Virus genome (UHGV): UHGV-0324336
Direction: 5' to 3' (one strand)
Length of the DNA: 45,108 nucleotides
From: a virus
In this document: positions 1,100 through 6,130 of the stretch, in pieces
Layout of the letters: each line of letters opens with the position of its first letter
Numbering within the stretch: the stretch's first letter is position 1
The notes under the pieces: generated by a model
What the model was told of the DNA's origin: nothing
Databases searched by the model: none
Seen by the model: only the letters and a program-made list of their open reading frames with translations
Made by a program: the position numbers and the translations under genes

Positions 1100-1276
1100 C
1101 TAGATTAAATCAATCTTGATATCATAGCTTTCAAGACCAGTCATTTTTTCCCGTGCAGTAAACTGGATACTGGTAACTTCTTTCCCGGTCTTTTTCTTAA
1201 GCTCAATGATTTTTTTTGTTATATATTCAGAAATATCTGCTTCTGTTTTTGTTTTTAACTCTTCAATGTTCATCAT
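1100..1276 (-). CDS. gnsB: GnsA/GnsB-family small protein (start at internal MMNIEELK)
   Basis: Internal-start product MNIEELKTKTEADISEYITKKIIELKKKTGKEVTSIQFTAREKMTGLESYDIKIDLI closely matches recalled GnsA/GnsB (…FTAREKMTGLESYD…); Qin-like synteny next to csp. Confidence 0.65.
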   Translation of the reverse strand: MMNIEELKTKTEADISEYITKKIIELKKKTGKEVTSIQFTAREKMTGLESYDIKIDLI

Positions 1277-1445
1277 TTCCTCTTTTAGTCTGTTATGACT
1301 TTCCTGGTACACAGTAGTGTCAATTATATGGAGCAAACGTATAAAAGATAAGATGAAACATCGCAATAATCAACATACGACGGTCTAAATTTCACACAAA
1401 CAGATAAAGATGATTATCATTTATTATCAATGCATTAGAATCAAA

Positions 1446-1676
1446 TCAATTCAAGAGTCTCATTGCTGCTTCCAGAATTTCTTCTGAAGTTACATGTCGA
1501 TCCGCTGCTACATAAATGACTTTATGATCTCCGGTCAGAGATGGAAACCCTGCAGCCATTACAGTGAGGTGTGTTGTTTCGCCATTTGGATATTCACGCA
1601 TGATGGTGTTAACTCCGGTCATCACTGGCACTACCATTGCTGGTTCAGAGTTAAAAAAAACTATTATTTTTTTCAT
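1446..1676 (-). CDS. hypothetical small protein (76 aa from MKKIIVFF start), YnfN position
   Basis: ORF track 1446..1715; internal ATG at 1676 gives MKKIIVFF…; sits between gnsB-like and csp as ynfN does in Qin; no motif recognised. Confidence 0.35.
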   Translation of the reverse strand: MKKIIVFFNSEPAMVVPVMTGVNTIMREYPNGETTHLTVMAAGFPSLTGDHKVIYVAADRHVTSEEILEAAMRLLN

Positions 1677-1947
1677 AATGTTACCGTAATATGTGAGTAT
1701 CCATCGACTAGACACTAAGCAAAAAAGCTCCCGAAGGAGCCTTCATTTTCACTTTCTTAAATCTAACGACAGACGGCTAACATTTAAGTATTGTGAAATA
1801 TTATCAAATGTAATCATCATTGATTTACAAAAGATACATTTTGCCCCGAAAGGATTCCTGTCAGAAACATCAAAAGATGATGTTCTATACTGAGAACCAT
1901 GGCAACACGGGCATCTAAAGTGAATATGGTTTGTAATATTTTCTACC

Positions 1948-2163
1948 TCAAAGTGCCACAACATGAACAGCCGCGGGGCCTTTAGGTCCGTTCTCAATAC
2001 CAAATTCGACTTCCTGATTCTCAGTTAACGTTTTGAAATCGTTGCTCTGAATAGCTGAGAAATGGACAAACACATCTTTGCTACCATCTTTCGGCGTGAT
2101 GAAACCAAAACCTTTTTCAGGGTTAAACCATTTCACTAAACCAGTCATTTTGTTAGACATCAT
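1948..2163 (-). CDS. cold-shock protein, CspA family
   Basis: [38 protein letters not shown]… carries the RNP1/RNP2 motifs (KGFGFI, VFVHF) of the 70-aa CspA OB-fold family. Confidence 0.9.
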
Positions 2164-2523: not shown

Positions 2524-3551
<1,028 letters not shown>

Positions 3552-3664
3552 GGATATTTATCAGGATTTATCGGCTTCAAATCCCCGGATATGTTAAATC
3601 TTACCTCACCAGTGATGGGCACTGGCGGGAGGAGGATGTCAATCTGATAAACACCGAGGCGACT

Positions 3665-3925
3665 ATGGATTACACAAATCTACCAAAACAAACTTTTGCT
3701 GATTTAATCGCACTCAGGCAAGCAGTCGTAGCTCTAATCAACTTGTTGCCGGAGAAGGAAAAGGAATTAGTTAAAGCGCTTCTTAACAGAACTGCCGCCG
3801 ATTTTTCATCATATCCACTGACAGATGACCTTGCGGACCTTCCTGAATTAATTGCAGCGTCCGCCATTAAGCTTACTGAAGAGATTTACCCTCCTCAAAA
3901 ATCTTCACAAAATTCCTGCGAGTAA
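3665..3925 (+). CDS. hypothetical 86-aa protein encoded antisense within the lysis cassette gap
   Basis: ORF track; GAGG 5 nt upstream of ATG; fills a 320-nt gap with no minus-strand ATG ORF; 3' end overlaps convergent 183-aa gene by 53 nt. Confidence 0.3.
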   Translation: MDYTNLPKQTFADLIALRQAVVALINLLPEKEKELVKALLNRTAADFSSYPLTDDLADLPELIAASAIKLTEEIYPPQKSSQNSCE

Positions 3926-4424
3926 CTTCAATGCAATAATCGTAAAACGCCGCAAACTGCTCATCGCGGCGTTTTTTTTCATCTTCAGAAGGAATCAGCA
4001 CCAACAATTTTTTATTCAGATCAGCGACGCTGCTCTCCAGTTTTTCAATGGGCGATTCAATATCATCTTTTTCTGACCGCAATGCCGTCGGTGGCGTCTT
4101 CAGAGAACCTGTAATTCTTCCCGGTAGCTTTCCTTTGTAGGTTATCCACACATTCTGCGCCTCTAAAATTACCGGGCGCTTTTCCGGCGACAGCTCATCT
4201 CCTTCACATAACCCGGCAGCAACATCCAGGAAGAACTGTCTGATGCTCCTTCTCGCTGCTGCCTCATAAAACTCCAGCGCGGCACCTTCAACACGGTCCA
4301 GCGAGATGTCCAAGCCAAAAATTTCACCGTCAAAGCGTTTTTTGTCCCGTAACGCTAAAGTTACCGTAACTTTATTCTCAAAATTGCGGATCCCTTTCAC
4401 AATCAGTTCATAGTTTTGAGTCAT
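3873..4424 (-). CDS. hypothetical 183-aa protein between holin and endolysin (YdfR position)
   Basis: ORF track; start 5 nt after holin stop; same position as ydfR between essQ and rrrQ in Qin; no motif recognised. Confidence 0.6.
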   Translation of the reverse strand: MTQNYELIVKGIRNFENKVTVTLALRDKKRFDGEIFGLDISLDRVEGAALEFYEAAARRSIRQFFLDVAAGLCEGDELSPEKRPVILEAQNVWITYKGKLPGRITGSLKTPPTALRSEKDDIESPIEKLESSVADLNKKLLVLIPSEDEKKRRDEQFAAFYDYCIEVTRRNFVKIFEEGKSLQ

Positions 4425-4428
4425 TGAA

Positions 4429-4644
4429 TTACTCTCCCCGTGCAGCCTTACGCTTGTCTTCTCTGATTTTGAAGTACAGATTTGTCAGATAAGTCAGGAA
4501 GCCCAGAACCAGACTCCCCAGTACACCAATCGCAGCCCACTGTGACGGACTGACCTGATCAAGCCACTGTAAAAACCAGTAGCCAGCACTGCCTGCGGAG
4601 GTGCCGTAGGCAATGCCCGTTGAAATTTTGTCCATGGATTTCAT
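4429..4644 (-). CDS. class II pinholin, phage 21 S-like (dual-start MKSM)
   Basis: 71 aa; MKSMDK dual-start motif and two TM segments essentially as in S21 (recalled); directly upstream of SAR endolysin. Confidence 0.9.
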
Positions 4645-4935: not shown

Positions 4936-5011
<76 letters not shown>

Positions 5012-5013
5012 AT

Positions 5014-5090
<77 letters not shown>

Positions 5091-5091
5091 A

Positions 5092-5168
5092 CTGGACCGC
5101 CACCGGGGACTCGAACCTCGCACACTCAACTTAAAGGGTTGACGCTCTTTCCTGATGAGCTAGTGGCG
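5092..5168 (-). tRNA. tRNA-like gene with atypical anticodon loop (CCUUUAA; Lys-UUU-like but C33); possible pseudo- or non-canonical tRNA
   Basis: Manual fold: acceptor CCGCCAC/GTGGCGG, D-arm GCTC…GAGC, T-loop TTCGAGT, CCA encoded, but position 33 is C and T-stem has an A·C mismatch. Confidence 0.5.
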
Positions 5169-5169
5169 G

Positions 5170-5245
5170 CTGGTGGCCCTTGCTGGATTTGAACCAGCGA
5201 CCTGGCGATTATGAGTCGCTCGCTCTCACCACTGAGCTAAAGGGC
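5170..5245 (-). tRNA. tRNA-Ile2/Met type (anticodon CAU), ileX/ileZ-like
   Basis: Manual fold: GGCCCTTTAGCTCAGTGGTGAGAGC…CTCATAA…GGTTCAAATCC…GGGCCACCA; closely resembles recalled E. coli ileX (lysidine tRNA-Ile2). Confidence 0.75.
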
Positions 5246-5351
5246 CGGGCGCAGGATAATAACGTTACGAAATCAATGTTGCAAGCATTCAAAAATCACC
5301 CTTATCTCCTCCACCAGCGCATTCACCATGTCTATCCGAGATAAGTGGCAC

Positions 5352-5428: not shown

Positions 5429-5457
5429 AATATATGCCTTTCAATCTACTTTTGCAA
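5429..5457 (-). promoter_or_regulatory. candidate late promoter (pR'-like) with probable qut region
   Basis: Minus strand -35 TTGCAA (5452-5457), 17-nt spacer, -10 TATATT (5429-5434); immediately 3' of the Q-like gene and 5' of the terminator. Confidence 0.45.
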
Positions 5458-6130
5458 CACTTTGCTTTGAAAATGCCGCCTTTTGTTTTGAACGTGTTCT
5501 CATTACAAACAATAAAGCCTCACTATCAAGTCGGTGAAAAATGTGTTTCATTGCAACCCAGTGACGAGTAAATGTTTTGGACCAGTTTTTAGTTGTCACT
5601 CCCGCCAGTAATGCCAGCTCCTGGTATTCATAACCTTCCCCACCAAAAAGTTCTGCTTTTACTGCCTGCGCCGCCAGCCAGATTAATTTTTTCAGGCGTT
5701 CCTGCGTTTTCCCTGCAATTTTTCTGGTACCGGATTGAGTATTAAATTCATTCCACGCCCACTGTGTTATCGCGATCTGATATTCCCAACAAATAATCCC
5801 GCTGTAACACCACAACAACCAGGCTTTATGATGTTCTTCAAGAGACAGAACTGCCCGTCGCCATGATGATGTCGAAAACTCAACCTGACTTACCAGAGCA
5901 ATTGATGAGCCTTTCGCCAGTGATTGTTTTCCCGGTATCGGTGGACTATCCCGCGTTATCATTCTTCCAGTCACTTCATCGCGGTACCGGATTTTTTTAC
6001 GCCTGTAACGCCCTGTATCAAACATGGCATTCTCCTGCCAGGCTTCAAGCTGACCTTTTGTTGCCCCACTCAAATCAGCGGTAGCGATAATGAGCTGCTC
6101 ACGCACAAACTGTAAATACTGGTTATTCAT
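5441..6130 (-). CDS. putative late-gene antiterminator Q-family protein (229 aa)
   Basis: Position after rusA and before the late promoter/terminator and lysis genes; ATGA overlap with rusA; family not confirmed from sequence. Confidence 0.5.
   Translation of the reverse strand: MNNQYLQFVREQLIIATADLSGATKGQLEAWQENAMFDTGRYRRKKIRYRDEVTGRMITRDSPPIPGKQSLAKGSSIALVSQVEFSTSSWRRAVLSLEEHHKAWLLWCYSGIICWEYQIAITQWAWNEFNTQSGTRKIAGKTQERLKKLIWLAAQAVKAELFGGEGYEYQELALLAGVTTKNWSKTFTRHWVAMKHIFHRLDSEALLFVMRTRSKQKAAFSKQSVAKVD

Follow-up and report, generated by a model that had tools for sequence, protein, structure and literature searches.

The virus genome UHGV-0324336, a stretch of 45,108 nucleotides (nt) that we refer to as the window, carries a lysis cassette in which a ydfR-like gene of 183 amino acids (aa) lies on the minus strand between the holin and endolysin genes and is met at its 3' end by a convergent 86-aa open reading frame (ORF) on the plus strand. 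This arrangement had been pointed out in an initial annotation made from the sequence, and both ORFs are indeed present. The 183-aa ORF (3873-4424) begins 4 nt past the holin stop codon and is followed by a 321-nt gap before the endolysin gene, and the plus-strand ORF (3665-3925) begins with ATG, is preceded by a GAGG ribosome-binding site and overlaps the 3' end of the 183-aa gene by 53 nt (3873-3925). The features of the locus, in window coordinates, are:

3018..3551, minus strand: phage lysozyme (rrrQ-like endolysin), 177 aa; PF00959, expect value (E) 2.6e-24
3552..3872: gap between the 183-aa gene and the endolysin gene, 321 nt
3554..3595, plus strand: conserved upstream element ATATTTATCAGGATTTATC (3554-3572) with a candidate promoter, TTTATC (3567-3572), 17 nt, TATGTT (3590-3595)
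3609..3625, plus strand: small hairpin CCAGTG-ATGGG-CACTGG, a perfect 6-bp stem in the putative 5' leader of the small gene; from sequence and fold
3656..3659, plus strand: Shine-Dalgarno sequence GAGG, 5 nt before the ATG of the 86-aa gene; read from the sequence
3665..3925, plus strand: 86-aa gene running towards the 183-aa gene; its product acidic and predicted to have three helices and a disordered tail; phrog_2572, remote homologues
3670..3867, minus strand: 65-aa ATG ORF antisense to the 86-aa gene, beginning 5 nt past the stop codon of the 183-aa gene; wobble positions in common with the plus frame
3873..4424, minus strand: ydfR-like ORF, 183 aa
3873..4088, minus strand: C-terminal tail of the 183-aa gene, residues 113-183 and stop codon, predicted helical
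3944..3979, plus strand: intrinsic terminator of the 86-aa gene; stem AAAACGCCGC (3944-3953), 12-nt loop, stem GCGGCGTTTT (3966-3975), 8 T (3972-3979)
4089..4424, minus strand: N-terminal DUF1327/YdfR part of the 183-aa gene, residues 1-112; PF07041, E 8e-41
4429..4644, minus strand: class II holin (phage 21 S-type), 71 aa; PF04971, E 1.4e-35; RefSeq homologues named essQ or class II holin

A long YdfR with a conserved C-terminal tail

The 183-aa gene, which the initial annotation had called unrecognised, belongs to a known family. The Pfam comparison with DUF1327 proposed in that annotation gives a match well above threshold, with residues 1-112 aligned to positions 1-92 of the 93-position PF07041 model at 138.6 bits against a cut-off of 25. 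The protein also matches phrog_2091 over its full length (1-183 of 183, E 1.4e-108), its RefSeq homologues are labelled YdfR family protein, and its residues 1-74 are 78% identical to K-12 YdfR. Clear homology to YdfR, which the initial annotation had named as a point against its own reading of the gene, is thus found for residues 1-112. The position of the gene is likewise that of a DUF1327/YdfR gene: it lies in a lambdoid prophage, with a class II holin gene on one side and a phage lysozyme gene on the other.

Members of the ydfR-like family have lengths of 103, 114-116, 169, 176, 183, 211, 263 and 296 aa, with a common N-terminus and mosaic C-terminal parts. For the window-type gene, PGAP retains 112 codons (4190-4525 in both locus L001 and locus L002) and flags a pseudogene ("incomplete; missing C-terminus"), yet the 183-codon frame is open in most copies examined. 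The tail (approximately residues 113-178) recurs in Shiga toxin (Stx) phages at 52-63% amino-acid identity, sometimes without the DUF1327 part. In a comparison with Stx1_699, the ratio of non-synonymous to synonymous change (pN/pS) in the sense frame is 0.38 for the tail codons and 0.50-0.55 for the DUF1327 part. We accept the full 183-aa product because these values are comparable and the tail is conserved in Stx phages. We rejected the idea that the tail is an accidental read-through into an inserted moron, on the same pN/pS of 0.38 and on the existence in Salmonella of a stand-alone tail ORF whose start overlaps the Rz stop codon. In the structural model of the 183-aa protein the N-domain comprises three strands and a helix, predicted with moderate confidence, and the tail forms a helical hairpin, predicted with low confidence. 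Existing records treat the two genes differently: that of phage 2H10 annotates the 183-aa ORF and leaves out the antisense 86-aa ORF, and those of the PhiR12 phages annotate both.

Evidence that the 86-aa ORF is coding

An 86-codon ORF is not by itself significant within 45 kilobases (kb), and the reality of the gene therefore rests on comparative evidence. Its product matches phrog_2572 over its full length (1-86 of 86, E 1.2e-53). PGAP annotates it as a hypothetical protein, and several phage records carry no annotation of the antisense gene. An exhaustive HMMER search followed by a profile search retrieved remote homologues (P0140, P0141, P0143, P0145 and P0146) of 89-93 aa that are 38-57% identical to the 86-aa protein and share its N-terminus (MSDNFLSKQAFAD... 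versus MDYTNLPKQTFAD...). In codon alignments over the three clades described below, where nucleotide identity is 58-66%, the plus frame is without a stop codon in any sequence, and its raw pN/pS at deep divergence is 0.44-0.51, estimated at ~0.3 after Jukes-Cantor correction. Four of the other frames of the region have pN/pS near 1 and are full of stop codons.

The remaining frame is the one that shares its wobble positions with the plus frame. The initial annotation had stated that the gap holds no minus-strand ATG ORF, but we found one of 65 aa at 3670-3867. Since the wobble positions coincide, substitution counts among close alleles cannot separate the two ORFs, and the values for close E. 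coli alleles are indeed similar (pN/pS 0.35-0.73 for the plus frame and 0.22-0.61 for the minus frame). Deep divergence does separate them: in the two deepest pairs the plus frame has BLOSUM scores of 140 and 158, versus 93 and 127 for the antisense frame. The 65-aa ORF has no family match in Pfam or PHROG, its extent is not kept in the Salmonella relatives, and it is interrupted by stop codons in other clades. We rejected it as the real gene on its lower BLOSUM scores at deep divergence and its unconserved extent; it is probably a shadow ORF. A search of Rfam found nothing in the gap (3552-3872).

A Shine-Dalgarno sequence, GAGG or AAGGA, is found 5-7 nt before the start of the small gene in all three clades, and the indel variants of the gene are in frame. 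The proteins of the family are acidic (isoelectric point 4.6-4.75; 4.6 for the 86-aa protein). The model of the 86-aa protein, with a predicted local distance difference test (pLDDT) score of 71.8, is a three-helix bundle (helices 8-27, 30-48 and 56-74) whose disordered tail corresponds to the region of overlap with the 183-aa gene. From this comparative evidence we consider it very probable that the plus-strand ORF is a real gene.

Among alleles of the gene, the GAGAAGGAAAAGGAA (EKEKE) stretch at 3749-3766 shows in-frame gains and losses of 6 nt (P0001, two residues longer; P0004, two residues shorter), a length variation that looks like slippage in a short repeat.

A promoter-like element and a terminator written into the partner gene

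Upstream of the small gene, clades A, B and C all retain ATATTTATCAGGnTTTATC and, 17 nt further on, TATGTT or TATTGT, with spacers of differing sequence; these hexamers form the candidate promoter. In phages that have the antisense gene as well as in phages that lack it, a conserved stretch of ~51 nt at this position (window 3552-3602; locus L109, 1501-1551) abuts the start codon of the endolysin gene. No obvious Shine-Dalgarno sequence for the endolysin is seen within this stretch (AAATCCTGATAAATATCC-ATG), and in Salmonella the ~51-nt motif accompanies the small gene at a distance from any endolysin gene. The leader, which includes the small hairpin, has an unexceptional folding energy (z = -0.96); the Salmonella clade carries a related GTGGTGGG(A)CACTG motif.

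Downstream, the small gene is followed by an intrinsic terminator, judged as such from the sequence, with a 10-bp stem containing six G:C pairs and a run of eight T, 19 nt past the plus-strand stop codon. A terminator scanner missed it because its loop exceeds the scanner's 8-nt limit. The terminator lies within the 183-aa gene, where its bases encode, on the opposite strand, KKRRDEQFAAF, the most conserved motif of the tail. A terminator hairpin is conserved 19-25 nt past the stop codon in all three clades. The clade C stem (CGCCACC/GGTGGCG) shows one compensatory change from G:C to A:U, with a change of the encoded residues from RR..AA to RHH..VA, and one E. coli variant has a G.U pair. Only two variants break the stem, and both come from phages without the plus gene. 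The small ORF and the tail are also alike in base composition, with G+C contents of 0.428 and 0.407, versus 0.479-0.517 for the flanks and 0.501 for the window.

The pair recurs in three clades and two genomic slots

The family of the small gene falls into three clades:

Clade A: E. coli, small protein of 86 aa; holin-endolysin slot; partners of 169-211 aa (DUF1327 plus tail); 53-nt overlap
Clade B: Salmonella, 93 aa; between Rz and the DUF1441/terminase genes; stand-alone 73-aa partner whose ATG overlaps the Rz stop codon; 59-nt overlap
Clade C: 89-93 aa; holin-endolysin slot; partners are K-12-type YdfR of 174 or 243 aa, or a 144-153-aa protein; 59-nt overlap

At the ~105 loci with readable flanks, distributed over these three clades and two slots, every intact small gene has a convergent partner. 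Searched against 418 ORFs, a profile of the E. coli tails picks out the 73-aa Salmonella partner (E 4e-6 to 1e-5), aligned at equivalent positions. The pairing is one-sided, since the tail also occurs without the small gene.

Many E. coli chromosomes carry a 1.3-kb segment of the locus at 94-98% identity, with 279 genomes holding at least 80% of it, and of 5426 complete E. coli genomes, 311 (~6%) have a nearly complete 374-nt segment with the plus ORF. The small-gene family is narrow: its named sources are E. coli, Shigella and Salmonella, and it is represented in one species-representative genome, at a single E. coli locus, a result that says nothing further about host range. Relative to Stx phages, the boundaries of the mosaic lie at ~3630 and 3891-3932, so that the window-specific part is essentially the plus gene.

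The same slot holds different convergent ORFs in other lambdoid phages and Stx phages, behind the 78-nt element that corresponds to window positions 3552-3629. These include a 233-aa ORF (locus L005, 2541-3242; locus L110, 1862-2563), which PGAP leaves unannotated, and a 104-126-aa ORF of phrog_1853 (locus L007, 2621-3001). Neither of these putative ORFs has a match in Pfam or PADLOC. The variety of its contents suggests that the slot between the ydfR-like gene and the endolysin gene is a hotspot for cargo. In E. coli 2013C_3997_C1 (locus L090, 1847-3060), an IS3-family element replaces the distal part of the module, cutting the small gene after ~80% of the segment and removing the ydfR-like gene. 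In a Salmonella enterica contig (AAFNNW010000040.1, locus L095), a remnant of the small gene, comprising approximately its first 28 codons fused to other sequence (P0018), adjoins a 139-aa DUF1327 gene, and ParE/ParD-like and HicA/HicB toxin-antitoxin pairs flank the lysis genes.

K-12 YdfR and the link to RNase E

K-12 YdfR occupies the same slot as the 183-aa gene of the window, from an essQ-type holin to an rrrQ-type lysozyme. It differs in its length of 103 aa and in that the ydfR stop codon overlaps the start of rrrQ, the lysozyme gene, by 4 nt, whereas the window protein diverges in its middle part, continues into a 70-residue tail and is followed by the antisense gene. Homology between K-12 Qin and the window is limited to 3000-3561 and 4219-4549. 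K-12 YdfR (locus L003, 5555-5866) corresponds at 85% identity to the first 99 residues of the 174-aa clade C partner (locus L117, 2724-3248), a protein of the K-12 YdfR type that carries a tail and has a convergent gene, and then ends. By this comparison the K-12 protein is therefore C-terminally truncated, a form without the tail and without the convergent gene.

Published work on the K-12 protein provides the only biochemical data for the family. A two-hybrid screen that used RNase G as its bait picked up residues 1-72 of K-12 YdfR (Göpel et al. 2026, PMC13232886), and these residues bind the catalytic part of RNase E (1-597) in a two-hybrid assay. The full-length protein, too, interacts with RNase E 1-597, and purification of tagged YdfR brings along both RNase E 1-598 and DNase-resistant nucleic acid (PMC13232886). 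K-12 ydfR is silent during standard growth, overexpression of YdfR alters few transcripts, and the discussion of the same paper refers to a genetic screen that ties ydfR to envelope integrity (PMC13232886). A literature search on DUF1327, on ydfR with holin and on morons in lysis cassettes found nothing specific except this RNase E paper (PMC13232886). From the K-12 work we infer that the N-domain of the 183-aa protein may bind the catalytic half of RNase E and possibly RNA.

Searches for function

Neither protein matches a toxin, antitoxin or defence family in Pfam, NCBIfam or PADLOC (PADLOC to E 0.05), and phrog_2091 and phrog_2572 are both listed without a function, their conserved pairing not being recorded there. 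Both proteins appear soluble, with grand average of hydropathy (GRAVY) values of -0.11 and -0.69 and no hydrophobic, toxin-like segment. The label DUF1823 (PF08853), which record PV340549 gives to the 86-aa protein, was not accepted: the protein scores 13-15 bits against the gathering cut-off of 25 (E 0.02-0.11), and the Salmonella and clade C relatives have no match to this family. Structure-fold searches with the 86-aa model gave no match, and a sequence-profile search of the PDB gave only chance-level matches, among them AcrIIC4 at E ~0.2, which we did not use.

Gene neighbourhood

The other annotated features near the pair are:

1100..1366, minus strand: GnsA/GnsB-family protein, in the accessory cluster downstream of Rz
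within 1100..2163, minus strand: 89-aa ORF, no family, in the same cluster
1749..2003, minus strand: YmcF-like protein, overlapping ORF call, in the same cluster
1948..2163, minus strand: CspI-like cold-shock protein, in the same cluster
2524..3021, minus strand: Rz-type spanin (DUF2514); PF10721, E 1.9e-38
2574..2870: Rz1-like lipoprotein ORF, embedded in the Rz-type spanin gene
5441..6130: Q antiterminator gene, upstream of the lysis cassette; PF06323

The endolysin gene is 88.6% identical to K-12 rrrQ at the nucleotide level, and K-12 rzpQ/rzoQ are arranged like the Rz-type spanin gene of the window and its embedded Rz1-like ORF. The accessory cluster downstream of Rz (1100-2163, minus strand) is of the Qin type. 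A cluster of four tRNA genes (Gly-UCC, Thr-UGU, Lys-UUU and Met-CAU; 4937-5246, minus strand) lies between the Q antiterminator gene and the holin gene, inside the late transcription unit.

Discussion

On balance, the locus is probably a mosaic accessory segment in a lambdoid lysis cassette of the Qin/phage-21 type that contains two real genes on opposite strands, the 86-aa gene being of the moron type. Of the functions that the initial annotation had proposed, that of a moron is the best supported. The small gene is equipped with a Shine-Dalgarno sequence and a canonical rho-independent terminator of its own and with a conserved element resembling a promoter; its G+C content is lower than, and unlike, that of its surroundings; and the genes that flank it are adjacent in relatives, overlapping by 4 nt in K-12 Qin and leaving a gap of 50 nt between the ydfR-like gene and the endolysin gene in O157:H7 NE92.

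In the mechanism we propose, the 183-aa gene would be expressed in the late operon with the holin, endolysin and Rz genes, downstream of the Q antiterminator, and its product, expressed late, would contact RNase E and RNA, modulating RNA decay and acting outside the lysis machinery proper. The 86-aa gene would be a moron-type unit with a transcript of its own, running against the late operon, that encodes a small acidic cytoplasmic protein and has its last 18 codons and terminator hairpin written into the tail-coding part of the ydfR-like gene. It may be transcribed in the lysogen, as long as the late operon is switched off. After Q-modified polymerase has entered that operon, complementarity between the two transcripts would extend over 53 nt from stop to stop and over ~110 nt to the terminator, and convergent transcription, through polymerase collision, or pairing of the RNAs would be expected to make their expression mutually antagonistic. 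Since the small gene is never found without the tail, the tail-bearing partner is the most likely target or associate of its product. Our confidence in the biochemistry of the pair is much lower than in its architecture.

Several observations weigh against this account. Polymorphisms of the small gene in E. coli comprise 12 synonymous and 18 non-synonymous changes, against a chance expectation of 24% synonymous, which indicates weak constraint, and ~15% of the E. coli copies are damaged (seven by an ATG to ACG change, five by frameshift extensions, one by truncation and one by a nonsense mutation); in E. coli prophages the gene is under relaxed constraint. The use of the plus-frame protein as a guide for the codon alignments slightly favours the plus frame. 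The co-inheritance of the pair is partly forced by the physical overlap of the genes, the tail is common without the small gene (in forms of 214, 263 and 296 aa), and for the clade C tail, homology to the other tails is not established (profile E 4.4). The covariation in the hairpin rests on eight distinct sequences and is statistically not decisive. The promoter match is weak, with hexamers matching at 3/6 and 4/6 positions and no call from a promoter scanner. Because part of the element, within the first 51-78 nt beside the endolysin start, is also found upstream of endolysins in phages without the small gene, its role as a promoter is a conjectural one; a function for the endolysin, or as a boundary of recombination, would be an alternative. 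RNase E binding is known for the K-12 protein only, under overexpression (PMC13232886), and the structural model of the 183-aa protein is poor (overall pLDDT 48.5) and unfit for structure searching.

The strict co-inheritance of the genes, with a conserved 3' overlap of 53 or 59 nt over three clades and two slots, a terminator embedded in the partner's most conserved motif and a low G+C content common to the tail and the small gene, is also what would be expected if the two formed a single regulatory or antidote-type module, in which the small protein or an antisense transcript restrains the tail-bearing protein or the endolysin in the lysogen until Q-driven transcription overrides it. The geometry is like that of lambda oop/cII and of type I toxin-antitoxin loci that overlap at their 3' ends. 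Such a module would not, however, be expected to lose an essential antidote and keep its target, as happens in the ~15% of copies in which the small gene is broken and the partner kept, nor does it account for the many phages that have the tail without the small gene. In addition, neither protein is hydrophobic or membrane-like or matches a toxin, antitoxin or defence family, and overproduced K-12 YdfR altered few transcripts (PMC13232886). We therefore consider this explanation doubtful. The toxin/antitoxin-like convergent pair suggested in the initial annotation finds partial support, from the strict co-inheritance, as regards a functional link between the two genes, and the searches gave no sign of toxin-antitoxin function. 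A type II system does not fit convergent genes with no toxin or antitoxin family in Pfam, NCBIfam or PADLOC, and a type I system does not fit a pair in which both partners encode soluble proteins and the antisense partner is under protein-level constraint.

An extension of this idea, to which we give similarly little credence, is that the tail and the small gene together constitute a mobile two-component module attached to late genes, fused to YdfR in E. coli and free-standing after Rz in Salmonella, in which the small protein, or an antisense transcript that ends at the terminator within the partner's codons, might control a late, RNase E-directed modulator of RNA decay.

It is improbable that the 183-aa protein, alone or together with the small one, serves as an accessory factor in lysis timing, either antiholin-like or regulating the pinholin/signal-arrest-release (SAR) endolysin pathway. 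Comparable lysis-timing factors are LysA/LysB of phage P2 and LydB of phage P1. The position of the gene between holin and endolysin, 4 nt past the holin stop codon and kept across hundreds of prophages, agrees with such a role, as does the reported link of ydfR to envelope integrity (PMC13232886, discussion). The 183-aa protein, however, has no transmembrane segment and no similarity to holin, antiholin or spanin families, its C-terminal half is highly variable and often truncated, and the Salmonella tail gene lies after Rz and not beside the holin gene; such biochemical data as there are implicate RNase E and RNA (PMC13232886).

Finally, it is very improbable that the plus-strand ORF is not functional, an antisense shadow or annotation artefact in decaying mosaic DNA between two late genes, for although constraint in E. 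coli is weak, with start-loss, frameshift and nonsense alleles, the wobble-sharing antisense frame has a similar pN/pS among close relatives and neither domain (DUF1823, 15 bits versus 25) nor structural searches gave a match, relatives that are 41-57% identical keep the start, length, Shine-Dalgarno sequence and terminator, the plus frame outscores the antisense frame at deep divergence and alone stays open, and the extent of the antisense ORF is not conserved.

The favoured reading, of a moron-type gene convergent with a long ydfR, can be set beside several known systems. Morons of lambdoid phages include lambda bor and lom, of which bor lies antisense beside the lysis genes. Like these, the unit in the window is an extra gene with its own terminator, a candidate promoter and a deviant base composition, inserted between genes that are adjacent in relatives; unlike them, it has its 3' end and terminator overprinted on a neighbouring late gene, whose tail moves along with it. 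The pairs txpA/RatA and bsrG/SR4 are type I toxin-antitoxin loci that overlap at their 3' ends, and lambda oop RNA and cII have a comparable geometry. In all of these, as in the window, convergent units overlap by tens of nucleotides at their 3' ends, an arrangement that allows an RNA duplex with RNase III cleavage, or transcriptional interference. In contrast to these systems, both partners in the window encode conserved proteins and neither is a small hydrophobic toxin. Modulators of RNase E are encoded by other phages, as in phiKZ Dip, T7 gp0.7 and T4 Srd; if the K-12 result carries over, the 183-aa protein would resemble them as a phage protein that contacts RNase E in the lytic programme. 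There is no sequence relationship between these proteins and YdfR, and K-12 YdfR binds the catalytic N-terminal half of RNase E, not the scaffold (PMC13232886).

We found no description of a conserved convergent pair with a terminator overprinted on coding sequence, or of K-12 YdfR as a truncated remnant. The layout is common in E. coli and Salmonella prophages; it is ordinary in kind, and the conserved pair is an undescribed one. RefSeq treats the 183-aa gene as a broken YdfR, whereas the comparative evidence indicates that it and the 86-aa gene are both conserved coding sequences. If the unit is merely a passenger gene, the finding is an ordinary one. A hairpin with a compensatory change inside a coding region, combined with a strictly conserved 3' overlap, offers a compact and easily mutated system in which to ask if lysis or RNA decay is controlled by antisense units of phage late operons, and the mobile two-component module, if it is what the pair represents, would be a new kind of lysogeny-to-lysis switch element that works through host RNA turnover. 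For the YdfR family itself, the K-12 protein being by comparison a truncated remnant, functional work should use the full forms, with the tail and the partner gene.

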